Origin: Rhizaria sp. SCN 62-66
Lineage: Eukaryota
DNA length: 44,010 nt
Assembly: GCA_001724265.1 (NCBI GenBank)
Contig: MEDY01000015.1
Location: 124,001 to 168,010 of the forward strand
Direction of reading: 5' to 3'
The notes beneath the pieces are model-generated. The model ran no database searches, was not told where the DNA came from, and saw only the letters and a list, made by a program, of their open reading frames with translations. Positions within the stretch are counted from its first letter, which is position 1. Every line of letters begins with the position of its first letter. The position numbers and the translations under genes were made by a program. Shown here piece by piece: positions 7,171 to 31,006 of this stretch.

Positions 7171-7701
7171 GGGAGGCGCCTCCGAGGGTGGTGTGCGACT
7201 GTTGGGCGGTGGGGAAAGACCTAGGAGAAGGGCTGTGTGGGGGAAGCTGTATAGAGGGGAGGAAAGGGGATGTGGTGAGCTCAAATTGTGAATAGTTAGG
7301 AACGCACTATACGTATATCATATTGGGAGAAAATGCGGATATGACGGTCTTTCACGCCTCTGCAATGGATTTGCGCGTCGCACGACAGGACCAAGACTCG
7401 CGAGACTGGGTGACCGTGGGCCATCGGACCAGACCGACCGACGTCAGTCAACCCTCCTCCACCACGAATCGAAGGACCAACTTCAACACCGGATATCTTT
7501 ATCTTCCCATCGTCAAGTGCAATTGTTTCACCGAGGACGCGCGGTGAATACGACTTTTGTTTACTTTCACCTTTTTATACCTCTCACCGACTCTACTGTA
7601 TTCTTCTACACCCCTCTTGCTTCAAACAGCTTTTCGCCCCTCTCCTGACCCCCTTCCAACTCGACACCAGCCACAGTTCCTGACACAAGGACCGCACCAA
7701 G
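7171..7701. promoter_or_regulatory. Probable bidirectional promoter region between divergent AATF and CHMP3
   Basis: Head-to-head ATGs are about 530 nt apart, with pyrimidine-rich leaders facing each gene. No specific element was identified. Confidence 0.45.
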
Positions 7702-9185
7702 ATGCTTAAGAAGCTCTTTTTTGGCGAGGAGGAGAAACCCATGAAGGAGCGCGTGCGCCAGTGGACGCGTGACCTCCAGAAGCAACAGCGCAACATCACT
7801 CGCGACATGGAAAGTACGTGCATTGTGCTAACTTTACAACAGACCTCATGAATATCGACCCCGATCAGCTAGACGACACAATATCACTTGATTCTCTATG
7901 CAGAGCATATTATACCTTGGGATTTCTATGGAATTTCTCCATGTAGCCTCTAAAACCTTGTTTTTTGTCGAGTGTCCCAGAGTTCTTTCCGTTAAAATGC
8001 AAACGCATACCACTCACTCTTTCTGCTCTGCGTCTCGCAACACCGCTTTCCATTATAATCACCTGCAGAGATCAAGCGTGAGGAGGTCAAGGTTACCGCT
8101 GAGATCAAGAAGCTCGCCAAGGAGGGCACCACCTCGCGCACCGCGCTCGCCACTCTGGGTACGTCTCTTCTGACTCAAAATTGCAGCACAAACTACGTGT
8201 CAATCCTATTTGACAAGCTTCCCACAGTACAGTAAACATATCTTTAGGAGAGCCTATACTTTGCGCAATTTACTTATCATTTATCATTTTCTGTTTTATG
8301 TTGCGTCTATCTCTTCAGCGAAATCGTTGATCAAGTCCCGCCACACGCGCGAGCGCATGCTGCTATCGACGGTACAGATCAACTCGGTCGTGCTCACCCT
8401 CGAAGGCATGGCCGCGCAGCTTCGCGTCGCACAGACGCTTGGCAAGTCCGCCACGCTTATGAAGCAGGTACGGTGCGATCCATCACTTGATAAGAAGGCA
8501 TAGCTTTCTTTTACTGTCCTGTTTCAAGTCACCACACAGATAACGAATCACATCTTGATTCTATCCATGTTCTGATTAACACACATTTTCTCTATATGAC
8601 ATGCTAACACGTCAATCAAACGCAATATTTTGCGGTTTTGTTATTATTTCTTGATGTCCTCCTGTTTAGATGCGAGGCGTGATGAAGCTGCCCGAGATCC
8701 AGGCTGTGTGTCGCACCATGGCCAAGGAGATGTACCACGCGGGCGTCATCGAGGAAGCCGTGGACGAGGCCATGGCGATGGCGGACCCGGAGGACCTGGA
8801 GCAGCAGGCAGACGAGACGGTTGACAACGTGCTGTTCGACGTGCTGCAGGACGTCACGGCGACGCTCGCCCCCGGCCCGCTCAAGACTCGGTACGCGTTA
8901 TATCCTATCCCAAACAAAACGAAGCAAAATCATATTGTTGTTGGAGCTCTCAACAATTGCGACTTGACTTGACTTCTAGTCGCACTTGTTTCTTCAAAAA
9001 TATTTCTTTTTTGTTTTGGTTTAAACTGATTTTGTGCTCACCTGTTTTGTCAACTTGCTTCATATTTCTTTGCTTTGTCTTTGCGCAGCATCACGGAGAT
9101 CGCGGCCGAGAAGGCGGCTAAGGTCCGTGAGAAGGAGGAGGAAGAGGAGGAGGACAAGGCTGTGGCTGCACTCTCGGAGCTTTAA
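7702..9185 (+). CDS. CHMP3: ESCRT-III subunit CHMP3/VPS24 (222 aa, 5 exons)
   Basis: Exons 7702-7813, 8069-8158, 8319-8467, 8670-8890 and 9089-9185 join in frame, all with GTACG donors. The protein reads MLKKLFFGEEEKPMKERVRQW...AKSLIKSR...QLRVAQTLGKSATLMKQMRGVMKLPEIQAVCRTMAKEMYHAGVIEE, which matches Snf7-family Vps24. Ends in TAA. Confidence 0.95.
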
Positions 9186-10027
9186 AGCTGTTGTCCTTAA
9201 GATCCTTCTTCGCTTCTCAGGTCCAGGATAACTTCATAGAGAGGTCTCATTTCGTGAGCTAGGTTTGTTTTTGATTTAGATATAGAGTGTGATGTCAGAA
9301 TAATAAAGAGTTATCTATTGTTTTATTAATATTTTTTCGTTCAAATACTTCCGATTAATTCTACAATTCAATTGTTTGCTGTTGTTCTTCGACTGCTCGC
9401 GACGTTGCGGCTTCATTGCTGGAAATGATCACTGAGTGGCAGTTTGGTGTGCATACACGACGAAGGCAACACGGATGTTTGTTCCTGTCGAAGATGCATT
9501 CGGTCTTGTTGCAAGTGGGCTGGAGATGTGTACGGACCAAACCGTACAAATCATCAAAACAACTGTCGCAAGCAATGAACACATGCGACATGCAAACTAC
9601 AGACAACAACTGCAACGCACGCGATGCGAGGAAACAATACTATCACCAACAAATAGTACATGAACCACTAGTAGAGGAACACCGTAACACAGTCCAAGTA
9701 ACTATGACGTATATTTCCACGCCTACGACATGTACGCACACTGAGACGAAAAGACATGGCCAGTGATTGACATCATCATGGCCGCATTTTACGTATAAGT
9801 TTAGTATTATAGCAATAAACAGACTGGCTTAAAGAGTTTAATAAAAAAACCGACATCAACAAACAAGGACAATCAACAGCAAATCGACTTATCATGAATG
9901 GGATCGAAATCGAGGCGAGCGAGTCAGCACAAAGTGACTGTGAGAAAGAGTAAAGAAGCAGACTGAACGATCGCGAGAGGATAGTGCGCGAGAGACGGAG
10001 ACCGAGTTGGATCCGGGGCTGATTCAC

Positions 10028-14355: not shown

Positions 14356-16086
14356 ATGCTTTCCCGCTCTGGCGCCTCCCTGGCCGCCACTGTGCGGCTC
14401 GCCTCCCGCAGCGCCACTGCTGCTGCCACAACTGCGCCTCGCTTCTCCGCCGCCGCCGCCGCTGCCACCGCCTCCACCACCGCCTCCGCCTCCGCCGCCG
14501 CCGCCCCCGCGGCCGACTCTGTTCCCACGATTACTGCGAAGGACGTCATGGCGGCGTACCAGCGCATCAAGGGCACTGTCGTGCGCTCGTCGCTTCAGGA
14601 GTCCCCCGCGCTGAGCAAGCTGACCAACTGCACGCTCTTCCTCAAGAACGAGCACTCGGCCTCCGTCACGGGCTCCTACAAGGAGCGCGGCGCGCTGAAC
14701 AAACTGCTGCAGCTGACTTCCGAGGAGCGCGCCAAAGGCGTCATCTGCTCCTCGGCCGGCAACCACGCGCAGGCCGTGTCTTACCACTCGACCCGGCTCG
14801 GCATCGACGGTGTCATCGTGATGCCGACGACGACGCCGCACGTCAAGGTCAAGAAGACCGCGGACTTTGGCGGCCGTGTCGTGCAGAGCGGCGAGTCGTT
14901 TGCGGAGGCGTACGAGTTTGCGCGCAAGATGTGCGATTACGAGGGGCGCACGTTTATCCACGCCTTCGATGACCCGCAGATCGTGGCCGGCGCCGGCACC
15001 GTTGCGATTGAGATGATCGAGCAGAACCCCTTCCTGGACGCCATTGTCGTGCCCGTCGGCGGCGGCGGGCTTATCGCGGGCATGTCGCTCTTCATCAAGA
15101 GCGTCAACCCCCGCATCAAGGTACGAACACACACACGCTCGCCGCAGTCTATGCACTGCTTTTGAAGACATGATCGCGTTCATTCTACAATTCATCAAGC
15201 TGAATTTTATTGTGATTGATCTTTATCAATTTGTTTCACCTCTACCTAATCTCATCTTTGCGTTCTATCATCATTGTGATTTTCCTCAGGTCTACGGCGT
15301 GGAGGCGGCTGCGATGCCGGGAATGCACCACTCGCTTGAGGTCGGCCACGTCGACCCTGTGCGCAAGCAGGGCACTATGGCCGACGGCATTGCCATTGAG
15401 CGCGTTGGCCAGGTCCCCTTCAAGCTCATCCAGCAGTACGTCGACGACATCGTGCTGGTGAGCGAGAACGAAATCGCCGCGGGCGTGCTGGCCATGCTCG
15501 AGCTCGAGAAGTCCGTCGTCGAGGGATCCGGCGCCAGCGCGCTCGCCGCGCTCATGCACGATAAGATCCCCGGGCTGGCGGGCAAGCAGGTCGGCGCAGT
15601 CGTCTCGGGCTCCAACATCGACATGACCCTGCTGGGCCGGATCATCCAGAAGGGCCTCGTCAAGTCAGGACGCATGGCGCGCATGTACGTCGACACTTCG
15701 CTCTATATCTGGGTCATATTTTTTATTTATTTCCTTTAAATTGCGTTATTTATGTATCATTAGTGCTTATTGATTCTGCCACTCAATCTTATTAATGATT
15801 ACGACTTATCATGTTGACATTTCCTGACTTTTATGATCTTCTTCTTAGCTGCGTGACTATCCGCGACGTGCCGGGCGAGCTGGCTAAGATCTGTCAGATC
15901 TGCAACGACCTTCGCGTCAACATCATGGAGATCAAGCACGAGCGCGCGTTCCTGCTCGACACCGTGGGCATCACTCAGCCCGTGCTCGACGTCGAGACTA
16001 AGGGCTTCGACCACATCAACCAGCTCGTGGAGCACCTGCGTGGCGCCGGCTTCATCGAGACGCGCGTCGAGACGCCCTTCCACTGA
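14356..16086 (+). CDS. PLP-dependent threonine/serine dehydratase with a single C-terminal ACT domain and a mitochondrial-type presequence (465 aa, 3 exons)
   Basis: Exons 14356-15120, 15290-15684 and 15849-16086. Motifs TGSYKERGA (PLP lysine), SSAGNHAQ, VPVGGGGLIAG, MADGIA, VEGSGA and SGSNID. ACT segment IRDVPGELAKI..VNIMEIKHER. The N-terminus is Arg/Ser/Ala-rich with no acidic residues. Ends in TGA. Confidence 0.95.
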
Positions 16087-16895
16087 GCGAAGCGACCGTC
16101 ATGACGTGTATGGGATGACAGCGATGCGGTGGACTTGCAAGATGCGCTATGATCTTTGTTGTTAGTTCTCTTCGTTCTTGTTTCAGCTTGTGTGTGGGAA
16201 GTCTGCGTTTGTGGAGAGAGTCGCTTTTTCAAGGTACAAAAGAGGCGTTCTTATTTTTCCTTCTTCGCAACACACCTAATTACCAAATCATCTTAAGTTG
16301 AAACCGTGATTGTTGATATTAAGCGCATATAGGGCCTTTAGATAAGAGCCAATGTCGCTAATTGTTTGTCTTCGGATCATATTCTATTTTAAAACACATC
16401 ATGTGTGAAGTCATGGGTTTTCTCATTATTATGGCTATTAATACAACGCGCTTTTAATACATCTGGCGTTTTCACACAGTAACTAAAATAAATCCTGCGC
16501 ACTCAAGCGTTCCCGCCGCAGCACAGCCTTGCGTGCGTTTATTGCATACTAGAATACTTCTAATCATTCCGCCTTTGTCAGGTGAACGTATCATCTCAGT
16601 CATACCAATATCGCGAGGATCACCTGTTCAATGCCGGCATCTTGTCTAATCCACGCACACATTCGTGTTCACTTGTTTGACTTCGCGTCCGAATCCAGTT
16701 GATACTAAATGAAAGTACAGCTCGCAGGACTAAGATCGTAACTATTAATTCTATTTATTATACATGCTTGTGCTGTATCACGGTTACAGAGCTATGCAAC
16801 GGCGTGCCTCATATCGCCACATACGCCTGTCCAAACAGAAAGTATTCTCTTTTGTTATCTAAACCATGGTTTCAAGTGGCTTGCTCCCGTGTGTA

Positions 16896-19800
16896 TCAGG
16901 CTGACATAGCAACTAGAGCCGCATCTGCGCACACTAGCAGCGACAACGCCATCCGCCGGCGTTGCGCTGTACTCACTGTGGGTGCGTTCGCAGATTGGGT
17001 GACGAGAGTCACGCTCCCAATAACCTGTTTCGCAAGCTCGCGTAACGCAGTCCTAGCAGCGGTAGTCGCGGGGACTGAGGTCTGTAAGCTACTATTCACA
17101 CCTAAACCACCAAGACTCGTGATTGCATTCGCAACTGCAGATACAGTCGCGTCCGTAACAGCTGGGACCAACAGCACTAGCCGCAGCGGCAAAAGCAGCC
17201 TGCGTGCAACAAACGCTAGTGAACTCGGCCTGAGCTGCATCAACAACCAGCAGCACATAACGATTCCTGTGGCCCGCGACCGTCCCTTATTGACAGTCAC
17301 AGCACTCAAAGTCTCAGCAAAACCGTGAGAGGTATCCGCACACGAGCTGGAGTTAGAGTTGCACTCAGTTGCAAGCGTAGACAGCAGAGTGGTGTCGCGG
17401 GCCGCAGCGTCCGCACTCTCTGCAGTGAGCAACGTTATAATCACTGGGTCAATCAGCGCCGCCAAGGCAGCGCCAGGCTCGGCAGCGCGGGCAAAGGCAG
17501 CGAGCATGCGGGCGCCGCGGGGCATCGGCGGCTTCCTCTGTCCGTGACTGTGAACAAACTCCGCAGAGGCGACGCTAGATGCCGCTGGGACAAGAGCTGT
17601 GGAGGATGCGACCGTGAGCAGCGGTGCGCCTGTCGCTGCCGCTGTAATCGCAAGCTGAGGGTTCGCCTCCAAATGCGTCGACACGGGCATTCGCAGTGTC
17701 AGCGTTGGTGGGGCAATAGCGAGGTTCCTCAGTGCGGCCAGCGCACGCGCGGCAACAACGAGTGCGACTGCGGCCGCGCGCGCGCGGGCGGCTAGCCGCG
17801 GTGCCGTGAGGCGGCGGCCGCAGCGGGCCAGCGCCGTCACCACTGCGGTCGCGGAGGCGGCGGCGGGCGCGCGGCGGAGCTTGAGCCGCAGCAGGGCGGC
17901 GGCGAGAGCAAGCAAGCGACCAGAGACAGTGCGGGCGACGCGGCTGTTACGAGTTGCAGTGACTAATGCCGGGACACCAGACACGGGGGTAGCTGAAACC
18001 ACCGCTGTTGCAGCCGCGCTTGCCGCTGCAGCGGTGGAGCTTGCAGCCGCGATAGGACGTAACCACTGCGGGAGCATGAGAGACATAACATGACTCCGCA
18101 TTCGCTTCAGCGCAGCGGCACGCGCACGGGCTTGGGTAGCACCACTGGTGTTAATGCTACTGTTGATGTTGTTGCTGTACTGACCCAGCGAAGCGAGTGC
18201 GCTCGCAACAACGTCACTCACAGTCGAGTCCGGAGCATTTGCGTTTGCAGCAGTGTCACTTGTAGAAGCAGCGTTGGGCGTTGATGCCTTTGCGTTGTCT
18301 TGGCTAAGCCCAGACGTGAGCACAGCACGCACTGCGTCTGCGGCGTAGCGGCCACTGAGCCCCCCTTTACCTCCACGGCTATTGCGCCCATTAAGGGTCT
18401 GCTTAGAGATTAAAAAGCTCTCCGTACACTCAGAGCAGCCGTCAGCCTTACCAAAGGACTTATCGCAGTCGTCACCGTTGTGACCAGACTTCCCGTGCTT
18501 GGGTATAGGCTTCGATGATACGCCACACTTGGACTCAATCTTCTTAGTCCAGCGCCTGATGTTATAGAACGCGGTGTACAGAGCAAGCATGTTCAATGCG
18601 GCCGCAGCAGGCAACGGTCCAGCCAGCAGCCCCCACACAGAAGCATTGCTTTTCTCAGCTGGGACCGTGTTGTCAATCGACTCGGTCGCAACAACCACCG
18701 CGCTGGGATTGCTAGCAGCTGCGCCGCCGTTGTCATGGAGAGATCGTTGTTGCGCCCAGCGCGGCGCTGCTGCAAGCAGTTCAAATGCCCTCATCATATT
18801 TCCGTAAGAAGTCCCACTCGTATCGCGAGAGCTCGACTGCGGGTCAGCAGTACCGTCGGATTGCACCCCGTTGCTAGACGCGCGCACAGCAGCATTCGCC
18901 GCCGCCGCCACAGCCGCAGCGGCAACCGTGACCGAGGACAACAGCGCGCCTGCCCGCGCCACGGTCCGCGGCCGCAGCACGACCCCCGCCAGCGCCAGCG
19001 CCCGCGCCGCAGCGGCCGCGGCAGTCGCGCCGGCGCTGTGGCCGCGGCGGCGGTGCAGCGCGAGCGGGAGCAGCCGGGAGAGGCGCGAAGTGACCGTGAG
19101 CAGAGCGGGGAGGACGGCGGAGAGCCGGCGCAAGTGGGCGCGGGTGGAGAGTGACTGGGCGGCGGCCAGTGCGGCGGCCGACGCAACGGTGGCCACGACG
19201 CGGCTTGTGTCTGAGACATCTTTGCTGCTGGAGCTCGCACTCGAATTTGCGCTAATGCGTTGATCAGTGAGATTAGGAGTTGCTCTGATGAGCGAGGAGA
19301 ACACAATCTCTACGTCGTTGTACGCAGGGAATACGTAGTGATTTTGTGGTTGCTTTTGACGGGCCTGAATGAGTCGGTCAAGAAGAGCAGCTGTTGCAGT
19401 AACGAGACTGTTCCCGGCATTGCTTAGAGTCGCATTAGCAGCCGACGAACAGTGAGCGAGCGCAGTCAGGTAGATGTCACAGATGCGGAGCACTGCAGAC
19501 CAGGACGCACCCGCACAAGCAGACTCTGCTGCAGTCGCAGTCGCCGCGCCGACACTGCCGGCGCCATCGTTGTTGATGTTCGCAGAGACGGGCAGAAGTG
19601 AAGCGAAGCTCCTGTGAGCACCCGCGAACAACGACATCAGAGTGGAACTTACGTCGGATGCGTTCGACGCTGACGGACGAGAAGAACGAGACAGAGGAGC
19701 AAATAATACCGCTGCAGCTGCTGGGTTCGCCACGATAGCATCGACAAGAGCCAGCGCAGCGGCGGAAACAACCGAGGCGTCAGTTATTAGAGTCGGGTTG

Positions 19801-22800
19801 GCTTCTGAGGATGGGAACACGATGCTCGCTATGGCGTCCGCAATATCACCGACCCCAGCTGGCACAGCCGAGACGGTCGTGATGGTTTCCGGGTTGGTAT
19901 GCGGAATAACAGGCATGGCCACAACGGTGCCTGCCGCGGAAGCAAGGCTCGTCAACACTGCAGTGAGCGTATGCAGTCCGGCCTGGCGCAGCGCCAGTGC
20001 AGTCACACAGCCGCCGCGTCCGCCGTGCCGTTGCTTATGGGCTTTAGCCGCATTGATACGAAGTGCGGACGTCGCGGCGGACGCGGCGGCAGCAACGGCC
20101 GTGACACAGCGCGAATGTAGAGTATCTGTCAATACCGCAACACTGACCAAGTCAGCTGACTGTGACGGCGGCTGTTGCGGCATCGGCAGCTTTGTCCCAG
20201 CCAACACCGCCGCAGTGGCAGGCGATGAAAGCAACACTGTCGTCGCAGTCGCAGCGCCACTCGCCGCGACAGCACGCGGACCGACAAACCCGCCTCCAAC
20301 AGGTTCCTTATCTTGCTCCCGACTTGGAGACAAGGCGAAGGCAGACGGAGTCGCAATGGCGCAGAGCCGCGCAGCGAGCAGAGCCACGCCCGGCACTGTG
20401 AGGACGGAGAACTCCAGCTTCGGCGCCGCGTACTCGCTCCCGTTCTCAGTCTGACCGGCCACAGAGCCTGCCGCTGTCGGCGTTGCGGTCCCTGCAGCGT
20501 TAGAAACAGCAGCCGTATGCGGCGCAGCATGGTGGTAGGGGGCGAGCCAGCGGGGCACGGTGGCGGCGGGCGGCGGCGGCAGTGGCGCGCCGCTGTAGCT
20601 GCTGCTACTGACGACGGACGGCGCCGGGTGCACGCTATTGAGCACGTGAGAGGCTGAGCTGGAGCCGGCGTCGGACGCGGCCGCGGAGCCGGACTTGCTG
20701 CTGTGCGCGTCACTGTCGCCGGCCGCAGTAGTGCTGCTGCTGCTACTGCTGCTGCTCGTGAGATTATAGTACGACTGAGGTAAAACGCGTGCAGTGATGA
20801 TGCGACCGTCGCCGATACCCGGCACGACACGCATCAGCACAGGCTCCACAGCCTGAGCCGCATCCGCGGCTGCCGCCGTCGACGCTGACGACTCCACACG
20901 CCAGCTATGCGTCCTGCCTAGCGCGCTGGCAGTCGCAGCGGCCAGTGACGCCGGGCCAAGTAGCCTCCGCAGCCACGTCGCGGAGGGGTCGATCGAGCAT
21001 AGCAGCGCCAGGGGACTCAAACGCGCAGCCCATGGGGCGCAGCGCCCGTCACCAGTGCTGGCTAAGTAGCTGTCTGAGTCCCGGTCAAAGTGTCCAACGC
21101 CAGACGCTGAGTGCGGGTTAGCCTGGTCAGCCGAGATGCCGTGATACAGCGCGGCGGCGGACACGGCGCCGCGGCCACCGCAGCGCCGGCACGCGAACGT
21201 GCCCCGCGCGGGGCCCAGTCGCAACAGCGGCAGCAGAATGGCGTTGAGCAGCGCGGTCAGCACGCGGGGGCCGAGACCGGAGGCGGCGTGGCGCGAGGTG
21301 AGCCGCGCCAGCATCGCGTGCAGCGTGTGGGTAAGCACCAACAGCAGCGGCGGGGTGACTGTGGGCAGGTAGGCTGTGGCGTCACCGGGGGCGGAGCCGA
21401 CGCCGAACGCGACTGTGGCGGCAGCAGACCCAGTCGATGAAGCCCTGTTGGCATGGGTCGACTGTTGCTGTTGGAGCAGTGCAAGCTGTAAGACGTTAAG
21501 GTTCAGCTCGGGCGTGTAGCATGACGAGGGAAGACCAACTGGTGAGCCCAGGACTTGGGTCGGGCCAGCGCTCTGAGTCTGCTGAATTGCGCTTTGCTGC
21601 GCGGCGTTGCCATCACTCTTGGCGGCGGCGCTTGAGACAGGGAGGCCGGTCGACGGCAGGAACTTGAAGTGCACGCCAGGAGTCAACGGAACAGTTACGT
21701 CACTGTTGCTGTTAGGCCCATTGCTAACCTTTAGCAGGAACACGGATGAGTCCTCAGCGTCAGCCACACTCGAAGCGCCACCGTTCACTGTCGCAGCTTT
21801 GACGAGCGCCTCGCCCGCGTCCGTGAGCATGAACGGCAGCGGCAGCAGCACGCGGCCAGCGCGGGACGGTGTCGGGCAATAGCACCGCGCCACACGCCAC
21901 TGCGCACTTGCAGACGACGGCGACGACTGTGGCGACTGTGGTTCAGCGTGAGGCTGCTGGCTTTGCTGCTGTTTGTGGTGCAACCAAGCGATCTCTTTGT
22001 CAGCGTCGCCGCCTTCGCCCCAGATCTGGCTCATCAGCCGCGTTGCAATGCCGACGATCTGCAGAGCTTTCTCGATACCGCCGCCGGAGACAGCACCAAA
22101 CCCTGCACACGCAGCGTCAAAGCCGGGGACTGAGACGCCGGTGTTGTGGAGCTGAGTGGCGTCATTGCAAGCAGTGCCGTCAAGCTCTTGTGGCTGCTGC
22201 TGCTGCGTTGCGAGCGTGTCCGAGTAGTCTGGGTCGGCGCACGACTCGCCCTCGCCGCTCTCCGCCGCCTCAGCAATCGCGGCCGCGAACAGGCCCGGTA
22301 ACAGCCGCAAGAACGCAGCCGTGCGCGCCGGCGCCGCAGCGGCCGCGGTGGCCGTCAGGGCGCGCGCCAGAGAGCGGCGCAGCGGCCGCCAGTAGCCGCG
22401 TGCAAGCAAGTCCGACGCCGGCGTGCGTGCCAAGAGCAACGCGGCGAGGAGGCGCGAGCGTTCGCGGGACAGAGATGCCGCCGCGGCGGCGGTGAGTACA
22501 GGCGATGCGGCGCAACGACCGTCGTTGTTTTTGCAGTTGTTCTTGAGTTGAGCGGAGCCGACCGCGGTTGAGACAGCAACTTCATCGGCCGCGGCAGTGG
22601 CAGCGACCAAGAAAGCTTGCTCGCGCGCGCGGCCCTTGGCGAACGCGGTGGTCGTGGTATGCAGTGCGTGGGTGAGTTGCAGCGGCAGCAGTGTGCGCAG
22701 CAGGGACGCGCTCTCTTCGCTATTGCCCGCCGCGTTAGTGCTTACCACAGTGTCGACACCGATGTTCATTCCAGCGGCGCCGGCGCCGACGTGAGCGTTG

Positions 22801-25800
22801 CTGCTGCCGGCGTTCGGATTGAGAGTGATCCCCTTGACGCGCGCGCGCGTGGTGCGCACACGGCCCACACTGCTGAAGCTGCCTCGTCCAGTGACGCCGG
22901 TGCCCGCCGCAGCCGCCGCCGCCGCAGCCGCCGCGGCCGGGGTCAGGATCAGCGACGCCGCGTCGTCGTCGCCGTCGTCGCCGCCGCCGGCAGGGCCGAC
23001 AATGGCGCCGCCCGTGGCGACGACAGCGGCGCTGTCTTCGCCCTCGACGCTCTGCAGCCGGTCGAAGCCGAACCACGGAGAGGAGGAGCCGCGCGGGTGC
23101 GAGCCGCCCGTGTGGTTGGCGTGGATGCCGTGCACGGGGGTGACTTCATGGCTGGTCGAGTCAGACCACTGGTGCTGCTGCTGCTGCTGTTGCTGCTGAT
23201 GGAGGTGCATCTGGTACATTTGCTGTTGGTGCTGCTGGTACTGAAGATCCGGCTCAGGAGGGAGAGCGTAGATGTGCAACTGTCCAAACTCGTCTTGATG
23301 CGGCACGGAATCAAAGTTAGGCCGCGCAGAGTCGATCTCCTGGGGTTGAATCTCCTGAGTGCGTCCCCAAAGTGCAACAGGATCAACGCCATCGTCGTCG
23401 TCATCGTCATCGTCCTGTTGAAGCATCTGCTCCTGCTCCTGCTGCTGCTGCTGTTTCAGGCTGCTCTGTCTCGGCATGCGAGCCGACTTGAGCCCGTCGA
23501 ACTCGAACGCCATGTCAGCCGCGTTCTCGAGACTGTTGTCGAGCCCCATCGCACCGCCGCCACCGTCGCCGTTGTCATTGGCCCCGTTCCCGGTGTTGTA
23601 GTGGGTCGGCCGCGCGCCCCGCAGCGGCTTGCGCGACAGACTCATGGTGCCGTTGCGCCGGAGAGCGGCCGTCACGGCGGCGGCGCCAGGGCCCAGCCCC
23701 AAACCGGTGACCGACAGCGAGGCCTTGTCCGCGGTCACCTGGCCCGTCTTGCGCGGGGTCCCTGTGCCGGTGCCAATCACACTGAGGCCGCCGTGGGGCG
23801 CGCCGGCGGCCGCTGCCGCGTGTCCACCCTGCTGTTGTGGGATGGCAGTGACGGAGATCGAGGGCGCAGAGCCAGAGATGTTAGACAGAGGGATTGACGC
23901 GGCGGACGACGACGCGGTGGAGTGATTCGACCGGTGTGACGACGGCCTCGCACCGAAACGACCGTGGGGCGCCGCAGTGGAGTGACCGTGGACAGCGGCA
24001 GCAGACTGACCGTGGGCAGCTGCAGTTGCTTGAGCGGTGATGCTGCTAGTCACGGGGAAATGACCGTGAGAAGCCGCGACAAGAGCGTTCTGAGATTCGG
24101 ACGCTAACTGTTGACCAAGATGCTGCAACTGCTGCTGCAGCTGTTGCTGCTGCAATGAGGGACGATTGCGGGGCAGTGTCGCCAAATCGAACAGTTCGAG
24201 CTCTGCCTGGACGGAGGCATCGTCGTTTGCACCGACGTCATCGTCATCATCGTCGACGTCGCTGCCACTTATAGCGTCGTCATCGTCATCGTCGTCGTCG
24301 TCGTCGTCAAAGAATGCGCCGTCGTTTACATCTTCGTCGTTGTCGTGGTCAAACAGCATGTCGTCAGTATCCTTGACGTGATCGTTCTCGTCCTCGGCGT
24401 CAAAGAAATCGCTGTCAATCACACTCACTCCGTCTTGGCGACTGGCGCTGCGAACGCCGCTCGCATTGCCCGGCACGCCGACCGCGACCGAGTCGGTGGG
24501 CTTAACGCCGCCCTTGCCGGAACCAGTCTTGGACTTGCTTGAGCCGGCTTGTTTCCGAGTCTTGGTCCCCGCCGCAGTGGCGCCGAGCTCCACGCCGGTC
24601 CCCGCGGCCGCAGCCTGCTGCGAGCGCCGACTGCGCTGCCGCAGCGAGAGAGAAAGCGAGTGCGTGCCCTTGCCAGTGGAGCCACGGTGAACGACGGTGT
24701 CGACGTCAAAGTCGTCCTCATCTTCCTCCTCATCGTCGTCGTCGTTGCCGCTCATGGCAAGGTCATCGTCGTTGTCGTGGGACGCGGTAAGCCCGCCGCT
24801 GTTGGAGCTGTTTTTGTTGTGGCCGCCGGCAGTGAAGCTCGAGTTTAGCGCGTCCTTGCCGCCTGCGGCGTTCACGTCCCCGGCGTTGCGAGCCCCATCA
24901 ATCTCATCATCATCATCATCGTCGTAGTACGAACCGCCGAATGCGCTGAACGTATCGTAGCCGCCGCGGCCGACCATAATCCCGTCGCCGTCGCCGTTGT
25001 TGTCGATGTCGCCGACTCGAACGCGCGCTGCGCCAGCGCCGGCGCCGCTATCGTCGTCGTTGTCGTAGTCGCTGCCGGTGGCGCCGCGGGGGCCGCGGGA
25101 CTTGCCGCTGAAGCGACGGCTACCACGCCCCTGCTGGCCCGGCTGCCGCGGCTGCTGCTGCTGTTGCTGTTGTTGCTGTTGCTGTTGCTACGATGGCATC
25201 GAGACACTCGGGCTTGTCGCAGCTGCAGCCACTGGTGCGTCGCCCGCTCTCGCTGCCGTCGGCGTGTTGGCGGCGGCAGAAGCAGAGGCAGCGGCAGCGG
25301 TGGCGGTGGCGGCAGCGGTGGCGCGCAGCACACGCTGAGTGCGTGACCGAGCCTGCTGGAGTGACTGCGCGACAGCTGCAGCACGGGAGCTCGATACCGC
25401 AACAGCCGCGGCGGGACCAGCGGAGGTGGCGTTCGATTTAGCGACCGCAGTCGGCTGATGCTGAGGGTGATGCTGTTTGTGGGGCATTTGTTGGTTTTGC
25501 TGTGCGTTGTGTGGGGGAGGCGGGGCGAGCCATGCAACCACGCGTTGCACGCCTTTGCTCGCAGCGTCATCGCCGTTGTCATCTTCGTTATCCCGGTCGA
25601 CGATCGGGCCGCCGATCGTATTCAGACCGTCATTTGCGGGGGGATTCCCGTGGTTATGGTGCGTTGACGGTCCAATCATCGACGCAAAGTGAGCCTTGTT
25701 AGCCATAATACGCGGCCGCGTCGCGTCGGAGTCAGCCCGAGCCCTGCCTTGCTGCACTGGCCCCACCCCGCTGGCGCCACCACTGCTGGTCACTAGTCCC

Positions 25801-26296
25801 CGGTGCAAAGTGCCTGGGCTGATGTTGTTGCTATTATTGTTGTTGTTGATGACGCTGCTGCTGAGCGTGTTGGTGCGGCTGCGCGCGGTCAGCGTCCGGC
25901 GCACGCGCACGCTGCCGGTGGTGGTTCTGCTCACAACGCTGCTGAGATGGTTATGGTTCGGATTGAGCATGTCGCCAGAGTAGGCGAACATAGAGTTGCC
26001 GCCGCCGGTGCTGTTTAGAGTCGCGGCGTTCAGGCTGCCGGTGTTATTGTGGTGGCGCTGCGAGTTAAGGCGCAGGGGCTCGGCGCCGCGCGCGCTCGCC
26101 AGCGCCGAAATGAGCATTGAGACGGGGGGCAGCGACACGGTAGCTGTCATCGCCGCTGCGCTAGCTTGTTGATGTTGCTGTTGCTGAGACTGCTGCTGTT
26201 GCAGGGAGGTTGGAGTGGCGATGGGCATAGTGCCTGCACTGCGCGCGCTAGCCGGCGCTTCAACAGTACCACTAACAGCAGCCGTCGTCGCAGCAA

Positions 26297-26328
<32 letters not shown>

Positions 26329-26810
26329 CCACCACCACCAACAGCAGTAGCAGCAGCACCAGCGGTCATCGAAGCAACGGAGGAACTTGCGCTTGCAGAC
26401 ACTGTCACGCTATACCTAGTCGCAGCCGCGGCAGTTGACGCCGTTTGCGGGCCAATGAACACACTGTTAGCACTCGAACCAGCAGCAGCATTTGTGTTTG
26501 AGCTCGCGGGGACGGGTGCGTTAGTCTGAGGCAGCGGCAGAGACGCCGAGAGCGTCGCGATCGCCTGCTCTGCTGTCATGCCAGCCTGCAGCAGAGGGAT
26601 CATGCGGCGTGTCAGCTCCGACACAACCACGGTGCGGTCCGCGGGGACACCCGCAGCCCCGATGGCGCTCGCAGTGTCGTTTGTGGCGCCGTTTGTCGTG
26701 TTTGGGGTGGTGTTGCTGCTGGGAGGGAGGGAGGCGGCCGTGGCGGTGAGCAAGCGCGCCAACGAGGCTAGGGCCGCGGCTTCCGAGGGAGCCGCGGGCG
26801 GAGCGCTCAT
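16896..26810 (-). CDS. Giant intronless BROMI (broad-minded/TBC1D32)-like protein, ~3304 aa if the single in-frame TAG at 25190-25188 is decoded
   Basis: ORFs 25188..26810 and 16896..24977 share one frame, and the 71 codons between them are coding-like. Segments RLLAALLLARTPASDLLARGYWRPLRRSL, SPLALLCSIDPSATWLRRLL and N-terminal ELTRRMIPLLQAGMTAEQAIATL resemble BROMI blocks as I recall them. The rest is low complexity. Ends in TGA. Confidence 0.55.
25152..25187 (-). repeat. CAG/CAA polyglutamine tract (12 codons) directly after the in-frame TAG
   Basis: Minus strand reads TAG CAA CAG CAA CAG CAA CAA CAG CAA CAG CAG CAG CAG CCG. Confidence 0.9.
26301..26327. repeat. (AGC)9 microsatellite encoding poly-Ala on the minus strand
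   Basis: Perfect trinucleotide run seen directly. Confidence 0.9.
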
Positions 26811-27265
26811 TTAGGGAGACGCGCACGTCAAGCGTGTGTCTGTGTGGATGACGTGTGCACGAGGGAGTGTTGTGTCCAAGGCTGGGGTCAGGAGACGAAA
26901 AGGGATACAGAAACGATTCTTTGATGAGCCAAAGCCGAGGATTTTGAGATGCAGATGTCAATCACAGGCATATCAACAAGCGTATCTCAATTAAAACCTG
27001 GTGTAAAACCACAAGATCGGTCCAACTTTGATATAAAGCGTGATTTTCGCAAACTATACACTCGGAAATGAAGATAAGCTTGGCACCACTCATTCGACTG
27101 TGAAGTTCACCTTCAATCATATACAGTACAATAGAGTCTCCGACAACAAACTTACGATTCGAACACAAAAAGCATACCAATCGCACATAGCGGATCACAA
27201 AATTATATATTGTACAAAGATGAACTCGAAGAGCTGCACTTTCCCAACACATCACACCTCGACGA

Positions 27266-27293
27266 CCCCCCCCCCCCNNNNCCCCCCCCCCCC
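27266..27293. repeat. Poly-C/G homopolymer containing a 4-N assembly gap
   Basis: C12-NNNN-C12 seen directly. Confidence 0.95.
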
Positions 27294-29200: not shown

Positions 29201-31006
29201 TCACCGTGCGGCGATGGCGTCAATCTGCACGAGCGCGTCCTGCGGCAGCGCAGCCACGGTCATGACCGTCACGGCGGGGGCCGCGAGCCGCGCCTCGAGC
29301 TCGACCACCTCATCCCCGGCCTTGGCAGCGCGTGCCGCCGCCCAGACCGCGTTCGTGATCACCTCACTGGCGGTCTCGGCGTCGGCCGCGGGCGCGAGCA
29401 GCACGGTGAGCTTGAGCGCCTTGAGCAGCGAGCTATTCTTACTCAGCAGCGCACGCTCCACGGCCGCCAGCGCGGACTCGGCCGCGCGCGCCGTCTCAGC
29501 GCCCGCGGCCGCGCTGTTGTGGGCCGCGGACTCAGCGGAGCCGGCGAGGGCGCCCTCAGTGAAGATGACACCCTTGGGCGCGGGGGGCCGGCCGAGGTAG
29601 TACGCAGTGCGCGCAAAGGGGCACTTGGGCGGCACGGTGACGGCCTCAATGGCGGCGGCGCGCGTAGTCAACACGGACATCGCCGGCACGGGGACATTAG
29701 TCGCAGCCTTGGCGTCCGTGGCCGCGGCGGAGTCGACGTGTTCGACGGTGGCCTCCGAGGCGAGGGCGGCGACGGCCTCGATCTCGGCCTTCGCGCCGAC
29801 CGGGAGCCCCGCGACGGCGTAGGCCGTGACGACGGTGGGCGAGGCACCGGCGGGGAACCGCTCGCGGACGACGGCCAGCGCGGGCGCGATGTCGGCCGCG
29901 GCGGCGACGAGCACGGTCAGGCGGCACACGGTCTCGAGCGAGGCGCCCGAGGCGGCCAGCACAGCCGACAGGGAGGTCAGGGCCACGGCGGTCTGCTCGG
30001 CAGCGGTAGCGCCGATGAGCTGGCCCGCAGGGTATGTGTCGGGGGACGCGGCGCGCTGCTCGGGGGTTGGCAGTGCGACCTAAAGAGGGAACAAGGGACA
30101 GAAACATAAATGAGTTACAGATATAAGGGAGATGTTAATGAACTACAGTAAAATTGAGATATAGTATCTAAGATATAGTAACACAGCATATAAAGGAGAT
30201 TTACTTCAAATATCATACGATATGGACATAAAGCGATGCAATTTAAAGAAACGCACCTGTCCGGAGACGAAGACGATGCCGGAGCCCTTAAGCACGGAGC
30301 ACTGCGAATAGGGCCCAATCGCGGCGGGCGCGGCCTCCGTCGCCGGGTGTGCGACGGGGCTCGCGGCCTTGGGCAGCGGGTGCGGGCAGGGCGCCTCAGC
30401 GGGGGGCGCCGTGCCCGCGGCGGCCGCGGCGGCGCGCTGCTTGGCGATGAACGGGCACTGCGCAGCGGCGGCGGCGGTGGCGGTGGCGTCAGCGTCGGCA
30501 GTGGCGGCGTAGGCCTCGACTGCAATAAGCGCGCCGGGCACCGCGGGCGCCGGGTTGGCCACGGCGTAGCACGCGCGCGCGGGGGGCGCCTGCGGAAACG
30601 TCTCGGCGTAGACTGCGTTGACAGCCGCGAAGTGAGCCATGTCGGTCAGCAGCACGGAACACTTGAGCACGTGTGCCGGGGAAGAGCCCGCGGCGGTGAG
30701 CGCGCGCGTGAGGTGTGCGAGCGCGGCGCGGGCCTGCTCGGCAGGGTCGGTGGAGACGACGGAGCCCGTGGCAGCGTCGGTGCCGGCGATGGCAGGGATG
30801 TACACGACGTTGCCGAACGAGTGTGTCACGGCGGCCGGGACCGGGGTATTCTTGCTGTCCGAGAGCGCGAGCGTGGCCTTGTGCTTCTTCCACACGGCGC
30901 CGCGGACCTTGGTGAGCTTGCGGGAGACAGTGCGCGCCAGGGGCACGGCCGCGGCGGCCAGACCGCCGAGGACTAGCGTGCGGAGCACGGTGGGGGTCAG
31001 AGACAT
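29201..31006 (-). CDS. Three tandem RidA/YjgF/UK114 domains with an N-terminal hydrophobic-basic leader (542 aa, 2 exons)
   Basis: Exons 31006-30257 and 30079-29201; intron GTGCGT..TTTAG, phase 0. D1 has VLKCSVLLTDMAHFAAVNAVY..PPARAC. D2 has APAAIGPYSQ..FVSGQ..LPVGAKAEIEAVA. D3 has LKLTVLL..VAALPQDALVQIDAIA. Ends in TGA. Confidence 0.9.

Follow-up and report, generated by a model that had tools for sequence, protein, structure and literature searches.

A single in-frame TAG at the head of a glutamine tract in a 9.9-kb protist reading frame: a candidate leaky nonsense substitution under the standard code

The window analysed here (the whole stretch of 44,010 nt, from contig MEDY01000015.1 of Rhizaria sp. 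SCN 62-66) carries on its minus strand a long reading frame that is interrupted by one TAG, located exactly at the head of a polyglutamine tract. The explanation that we prefer, at a probability of about 0.5, is that a CAG codon in the tract has undergone a nonsense substitution to TAG in an organism that uses the standard code, and that the new stop is probably leaky, being decoded in part by tRNA-Gln. The features on which the argument is based are listed in Table 1.

Table 1. Features of the interrupted reading frame, in window coordinates.
Feature	Position	Strand	Basis or remark
ATG, probable start of the entire gene	26808..26810	(-)	Follows an in-frame TAA; upstream GC 0.57; non-coding 5' flank
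Upstream 540-codon part, Ala/Ser/Thr-rich and of low complexity	25191..26810	(-)	Coding score, composition
In-frame TAG	25188..25190	(-)	Direct read; same in contig L001
Twelve CAA/CAG codons (13 Gln if TAG is read as Gln)	25152..25187	(-)	Longest Gln run of the protein
Coding-like stretch of 70 codons, not a spacer	24978..25187	(-)	Score, GC, no stop or ATG
ATG at which recorded protein P0001 starts; sole possible start should the TAG terminate	24975..24977	(-)	Codon 71 past the TAG
2,763 codons past the TAG, ending in TGA (16896-16898)	16896..25187	(-)	Low complexity, then Ala/Leu-rich helical region

The site was read directly from the minus strand at 25190-25188, and its context is GTC TCG ATG CCA TCG TAG CAA CAG CAA CAG, in agreement with the first-pass annotation of this DNA. 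The frame runs without a stop through 540 codons from the ATG at 26810 to the TAG, and from there through 2,763 codons to the TGA at 16898-16896, close to the figure of about 2,760 given earlier; from ATG to TGA it measures 9,915 nt, or 3,304 codons including the TAG. Across all six frames of the window, 18 stops are flanked on either side by 100 open codons or more, and only the TAG at 25190 has flanks of 540 and 2,763. The second-largest pair among these 18 is 130 and 424, and the other cases are off-frame or antisense frames running across GC-rich genes. In the coding DNA of the window, 589 of 22,286 codon positions (2.6%) hold an off-frame stop, and at this rate 540 open codons would arise by chance with a probability of about 5e-7, so the upstream frame is not a product of chance. 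If the codon was formerly CAG, its C had a G before it and an A after it, which bears out the earlier remark that a change from C to T at this position would not be at a CpG.

We conclude that the locus originally formed one gene with 3,304 codons. This was assessed with a coding score in bits per codon, based on codon usage and trained on the other genes of the window. The upstream 540 codons score +0.19 in frame 0, compared to -0.73 and -0.66 in the other two frames, and the frame-0 score is above zero in each of the three thirds. The downstream part also has a positive score, and the 333 codons from the ATG at 24977 onward give +0.32. For the 70 codons that lie between the TAG and this ATG, the scores of frames 0, 1 and 2 are +0.05, +0.02 and -1.5: frames 0 and 1 are ambiguous here as a result of trinucleotide repeats, yet the stretch is far from non-coding. 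True gene flanks in the window score between -1.0 and -1.4, and the 5' flank of the ATG at 26810 scores between -1.0 and -1.2. Base composition gives a similar picture. GC around the TAG is 0.50-0.80 in 60-nt steps, and 0.63-0.80 between 24978 and 25187, which contains neither an in-frame stop nor an in-frame ATG; in the 200 nt past real gene ends it is 0.36-0.48, with one case at 0.55. The ATG at 26810 comes directly behind an in-frame TAA, and the 100 nt before it have a GC of 0.57, whereas the corresponding figure for the ATG at 24977 is 0.69, against 0.38-0.49 at other likely starts. The single-gene reading therefore has three grounds, namely the positive frame-0 score on both sides together with the coding-like character of the 70 codons, the lack of an AT-rich spacer of the kind that flanks real genes here, and a start-like context at 26810 but not at 24977. 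The description of the flanks in the first-pass annotation, as GC-rich and coding-like with no AT-rich spacer, is thus upheld.

The encoded protein is an orphan, probably with an N-terminal disordered region followed by a helical-repeat body. The first-pass annotation had seen BROMI-like blocks on both sides of the TAG. We found no support for an identity with BROMI/TBC1D32, because no Pfam family was matched by either half at E<=0.1, or by the fused protein of 3,304 residues at E<=10. Word-indexed searches, run with the fused protein (residues 1-1000) and with P0001 (residues 690-2693), matched only P0001 itself, and an exhaustive phmmer search with fused residues 1-1200 matched only P0001 and P0002, the two proteins already on record from this locus, each of which is the single member of its 90% cluster. 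There were no matches in the genome_contigs and viral_contigs collections, and none to Rfam anywhere in the window. About the first 1,300 residues are of low complexity, rich at first in Ala, Ser and Thr (22%, 12.6% and 9.6% respectively in the upstream 540 residues) and then containing runs of acidic Asp, of Gly and of Gln; the remainder is rich in Ala and Leu. The Atlas model of the upstream 540 residues has a pLDDT of 0.41 and a pTM of 0.20, and hence no confident fold, and in the Atlas this part gave no usable feature match and structural matches with TM no higher than 0.20. An AlphaFold2 model of the last 655 residues, made without an alignment, is all-helical at a pLDDT of 40.8, a confidence too low for the model to be used in searching for similar folds. 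The C-terminal 2,004 residues score 0.86-0.90 in the Atlas to assorted helical-repeat families, with a recognition value of 1101, which is under the reliable range and makes these matches no more than a lead.

The sequence of events that we propose is as follows. The ancestral state would have been one gene of 3,304 codons, encoding an orphan and mostly low-complexity protein in an uncultured, GC-rich protist with the standard code. At the head of a tract of 13 glutamines, CAG would then have become TAG by a single C-to-T substitution, presumably in that direction; because no homologue was found, we infer the ancestral CAG rather than observe it. The majority of ribosomes would now stop at the UAG and release a fragment of 540 residues without a fold. 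In a minor share of cases, which by analogy with yeast might be at the per-cent level, a near-cognate tRNA-Gln would decode the UAG, and the insertion of Gln would restore the pre-mutation protein exactly. The 8.3-kb downstream frame would still be open because of this leak or because the mutation is young. Several points count against the proposal. A premature stop 8.3 kb ahead of the normal one is expected to lead to mRNA decay. Also counted against it are the lack of a listed contig piece that bridges the site, the possibly shared sample origin of the two assemblies, a glutamine context that is only half of the QXQ type, the lack of an RNA structure and the lack of gene ends at TAG, all of which are described below.

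The classical six-base readthrough motif, of the TMV type, is CAR-YYA directly after the UAG, and MuLV uses a pseudoknot. Here the TAG is followed by C at +4, with CAA as the next codon and then 11 further Gln codons. The sequence UAG CAA CAG departs from the six-base motif, since its second triplet is CAG rather than YYA. No stimulatory RNA structure was found in the 154 nt from the stop (z = -0.27, with 70 of 200 shuffled sequences folding as well). The earlier claim that UAG followed by CAA is a leaky context is accordingly half borne out: the site has the C at +4 and the CAA, and lacks the second triplet of the motif and a downstream structure. The 5' neighbour of the TAG is TCG (Ser) and not a Gln codon, and the Gln content of the whole protein is 4.9%. 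Comparison with yeast is useful here. Yeast inserts Gln, Tyr or Lys at UAG (PMC4150775). In a preprint (PMC13192750), the contributors to yeast readthrough are given as a C at +4, flanking Gln codons 5' and 3' of the stop, and the Q content as a whole; the proteins with leaky nonsense codons contain 7-20% Gln, and in the snf5 allele that was tested, readthrough sufficed for wild-type growth. Thus the 3' half of the QXQ context (CAA with C at +4) is present at our site and the 5' Gln is absent, and the Gln content of 4.9% compares with 7-20% in yeast. With Gln only on the 3' side of the stop and a protein of this composition, the leak is expected to be lower than in yeast, but not zero.

If instead the readthrough were programmed, that is, selected, the locus would make a short product of 540 residues and, at a low ratio, a long one of 3,304 residues, as viral gag-pol and replicase genes do. 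Both frames are intact and coding-like, the UAG has its C at +4 and its CAA, and every assembly records the split form alone, all of which would fit. However, the mismatch to CAR-YYA and the lack of a stable downstream structure are both unfavourable, no confident fold was obtained for the short product, and no relatives were matched that could display conservation. We also know of no readthrough extension of 2,763 codons in a cellular gene, which counts further against a programmed event. We consider it unlikely.

It could also be supposed that the TAG ends a working protein of 540 residues, and that the ATG at 24977 is used to make a second protein, by way of an internal promoter or reinitiation, after an older gene fission. 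Gene callers have given exactly these two products: P0001 has 2,693 residues, starts with MVGRGG at the ATG at 24977 and is found on four contigs, one of them 278,007 bases long, while P0002 has 320 residues, identical to the last 320 of the upstream part, ends at the TAG and is known from three sources and two contigs. The 540-residue upstream product is present letter for letter in the Atlas. In a polyA-RNA library (X6, record 32), one contig covers 24777-25117, and contigs from this library also cover much of the downstream frame, which speaks for this reading. The same contig nevertheless reaches 140 nt upstream of the ATG at 24977. Depth in the library is 0-0.55 in five bins over 25068-26852, with none beyond; this is a contig-level set of depth 2-4 and is too thin to interpret. 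The 210 nt between the two supposed units are coding-like and stop-free, without the AT-rich character of all other intergenic regions here, and the sequence before the ATG at 24977 is of coding type, with the high GC noted above. Two separate working units are for these reasons an unlikely reading of the locus.

The next question is whether the TAG is present in the DNA at all, or whether the true codon is CAG and the T came in through faulty sequencing or consensus building, or through an assembler that settled on a minority allele. The first-pass annotation had left recoding, an error, a nonsense allele and readthrough open to consideration; the last two remain so, while an assembly error has become less likely, given an identical second contig and the presence of split proteins only. 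The second contig (L001) comes from another metagenome assembly and was independently built; it corresponds to window positions 23085-26837 and is 100% identical over 3,753 nt, TAG included, although it and the window may derive from the same or sister samples. No fused protein was found among proteins of 1,817-5,782 residues, nor was a fused form found among 1.84 billion protein representatives, and the product that ends at the TAG has its three sources.

Further information comes from sequencing runs, which were compared as contig sets. The window is of metagenomic origin, and the runs that contain its sequence are labelled as bioreactor metagenome and wastewater metagenome. None of the four runs compared over 16500-27200 lists another letter at 25188-25190. 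Coverage of the site itself is unproven, as none of the 32 pieces listed spans 25138-25424: near the site, these pieces end at 25137 and restart at 25425 (there are 919 further pieces). The de Bruijn contigs of the runs break at the CAG/CAA repeat next to the site, and so the absence of an alternative letter at the TAG proves little. An error would also be consistent with the low contig depths (about 5-8 in run X3 and 4-7 in run X4) and with the draft state of the window, which has an NNNN gap at 27278-27281. The eight pieces listed for run X3 all match the window without a difference, and for this reason the assemblies may not sample independent populations; run X4 has 12 listed differences. 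The two runs represent the same or a near-identical population and not independent lineages. Seven X4 differences fall in the upstream frame (one, three and three at codon positions 1, 2 and 3, with five of the seven in a length-changing Q-repeat), and they give no selection signal. Joints or loose ends seen in the runs at 24121-24153, 24715-24745 and 26166 come from repeats or from other organisms. On this contig-level evidence, the population that was sampled probably does carry the TAG as a genuine stop in its DNA, and an erroneous letter is rather improbable.

A change in the genetic code was also considered. The window contains 11,143 modelled codons in about 13 genes, with 432 Gln codons (341 CAG and 91 CAA) and one in-frame TAG, as the first-pass annotation had noted for its roughly 11,000 codons. 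The pair TTG and CTG, which are synonymous and differ by T or C in the first position, was used as a proxy for the share of TAG relative to CAG. TTG/(TTG+CTG) is 0.20, from which about 68 TAG codons are expected if TAG were a free Gln codon; the Poisson probability of finding no more than one is 1.8e-28. Within the window, these counts lead us to reject an established UAG=Gln code, and the argument made earlier against full reassignment gains a quantitative basis. In lineages where the reassignment is known, in-frame UAG is frequent: the report on Iotanema spirale (PMC5304391) gives 204 cases across 126 genes for this species and 384 across 71 genes for the rhizarian exLh.

A more limited change, in which UAG has been lost as a terminator and is at a first stage of capture by Gln, or is decoded ambiguously, with UAA and UGA kept as in Iotanema, would make the TAG at the head of the polyQ tract one of its first sense uses. 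The TAG does fall exactly at a Gln position. In addition, gene ends in the window comprise eight TGA, five TAA (one of which is doubtful as it overlaps GTAAGT) and no TAG, among about 13 that could be defined, and Iotanema has no UAG at 119 gene ends in the same source (PMC5304391). The organism has no close sequenced relative, at least as judged from prohibitin-2, which has one match at 86% identity and nearest named matches at 56-67% (red algae and a dictyostelid). On the other side, composition leads one to expect a fraction of 0.16-0.22 of stops to be TAG, and the lack of TAG at about 13 ends has a probability of about 0.055-0.12 under ordinary usage with the standard code, which is non-significant and was noticed post hoc. 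A single TAG, set beside 432 standard Gln codons and an expectation of about 68, is a per-gene rate far below that of the reassigned lineages for which figures are given (PMC5304391). The window contains no tRNA genes, and hence no tRNA with a CUA anticodon was found there, and the prior for a code change is very low. Early capture by Gln is accordingly very improbable, and we infer that the organism probably uses the standard code.

Removal of the TAG by splicing is rejected. The introns that were recognised in this window share a GTACG donor, a high AT content, a length of about 170-200 nt, and a pyrimidine tract and AG at the end. The gene with a PALP domain has two such introns, starting with GTACGA and GTACGT, which are AT-rich and end with the pyrimidine tract and AG; the gene at 12835-10028 has one of about 200 nt, which starts with GTACGT and contains the TAG that closes its 596-residue stop-to-stop frame; and the Snf7-family gene at approximately 7684-9185 has several donors of the GTACG type. 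In the 800 nt upstream of the TAG in question, there is no GTACG, GTAAG or GTATG donor, and GC is at least 0.50 throughout, which upholds the earlier exclusion of an intron. Only one GT...AG pair lies in frame around the TAG; the 18-nt mini-intron that it would define (GTCTCG...TAG) is GC-rich and is rejected because it resembles no intron found here.

As it stands, the finding is ordinary, namely a premature stop at a Gln codon in a repeat tract. Searches for altered codes can take it as a warning: a lone in-frame stop at the "right" amino acid is also the outcome of a C-to-T nonsense substitution, and the comparison with TTG and CTG within the same window is sufficient to reject an established reassignment. 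Should the leak be real, this would be a natural case outside yeast of a tolerated nonsense allele in a Q tract, with tRNA-Gln restoring the original residue. Should incipient capture by Gln be real, the locus would show a GC-rich genome in the course of changing its code.

Three known systems can be compared with this locus. Viral UAG readthrough, of the TMV type and in MuLV, is similar in that UAG is followed by CAA and by a very long downstream frame. It differs in that here the second triplet is CAG, there is no structure, and the gene is a cellular orphan without viral domains.

Iotanema spirale, in which UAG encodes Gln and UAA is a stop, has in common with our locus an in-frame UAG at a Gln position, the use of UAA and UGA as terminators, and no TAG terminator in the genes sampled (PMC5304391). 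The differences are that there is one in-frame TAG in 13 genes here and 204 in 126 genes there, and that the TAG here lies outside any conserved Gln column.

The closest parallels to the preferred reading, a CAG-to-TAG nonsense substitution with some leak, are the yeast alleles snf5-Q225X and snf5-Q267X and those of cyc8 and whi3, as described in the preprint (PMC13192750). Our case differs from them in having Gln on the 3' side only, with TCG on the 5' side, in a Gln content of 4.9% as against 7-20%, and in coming from an unrelated organism in which the leak is a prediction. It resembles them in that a Gln codon within a Q tract would have become a stop followed by CAA, which puts C at +4, that Gln would be restored, and that the downstream frame is open.

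Stops were tallied at about 13 gene ends (listed in the table), and were TGA in eight cases and TAA in five, with TAG absent as a terminator from all of these ends. The TAG share among stops predicted from composition is 0.16–0.22, and the probability of finding no TAG at these ends is therefore about 0.055–0.12.

Coordinates of the features discussed
Feature	Position	Strand	Remark
Gene ends	1827, 4587, 4870, 9185, 10028, 16086, 16896, 27592, 29201, 31326, 36421, 36830, 37887		Stop-codon tally
Snf7/CHMP-family gene	7684–9185	+	Pfam Snf7 matches in two exons
Introns/donors, GTACG type	15121–15289; 15685–15848
Intron/donor, GTACG type	11080–10877	minus
Intron/donor, GTACG type	6651	minus
Introns/donors, GTACG type	7814–9732	plus
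Polyadenylated RNA contig (X6)	24777–25117
Prohibitin-2	28512–27592	minus
Two RidA (Ribonuc_L-PSP) frames, head to tail	31093–30206; 30079–29201	minus
Second very long frame	44009–37887	minus	2,040 codons

The introns seen in the window have the donor GTACG(A/T/C/G), are AT-rich and about 170–200 nt long, and end in a pyrimidine tract followed by AG. The Snf7/CHMP-family gene consists of at least five small exons in an AT-rich stretch whose ORFs are all shorter than 150 aa. Its two matches to Pfam Snf7 have E values of 3e-6 and 1e-5, and its stop is TAA. GTGCGT at about 30250 (minus strand) is likely to be a donor. The TGA at 30206, between the RidA frames, appears to be intronic, and the two frames are therefore probably a single gene with two RidA domains. 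The second very long frame, which continues past the window end, matches no Pfam family and is another large low-complexity orphan gene.

The window belongs to a draft or scaffolded assembly. A run of four Ns is located at 27278–27281, where AT-rich sequence precedes the 3,304-codon frame. Compared with the window, the X6 contig, which comes from a polyA-RNA library, has three substitutions and two in-frame deletions, one of 3 nt at 24904 and one of 6 nt at 25056. It represents a strain variant of the acidic repeat region.

Prohibitin-2 is 86% identical to one metagenome relative, the database protein P0007. Among named sequences, the closest come from red algae and a dictyostelid and reach only 56–67% identity, so no closely related sequenced reference exists for the organism.
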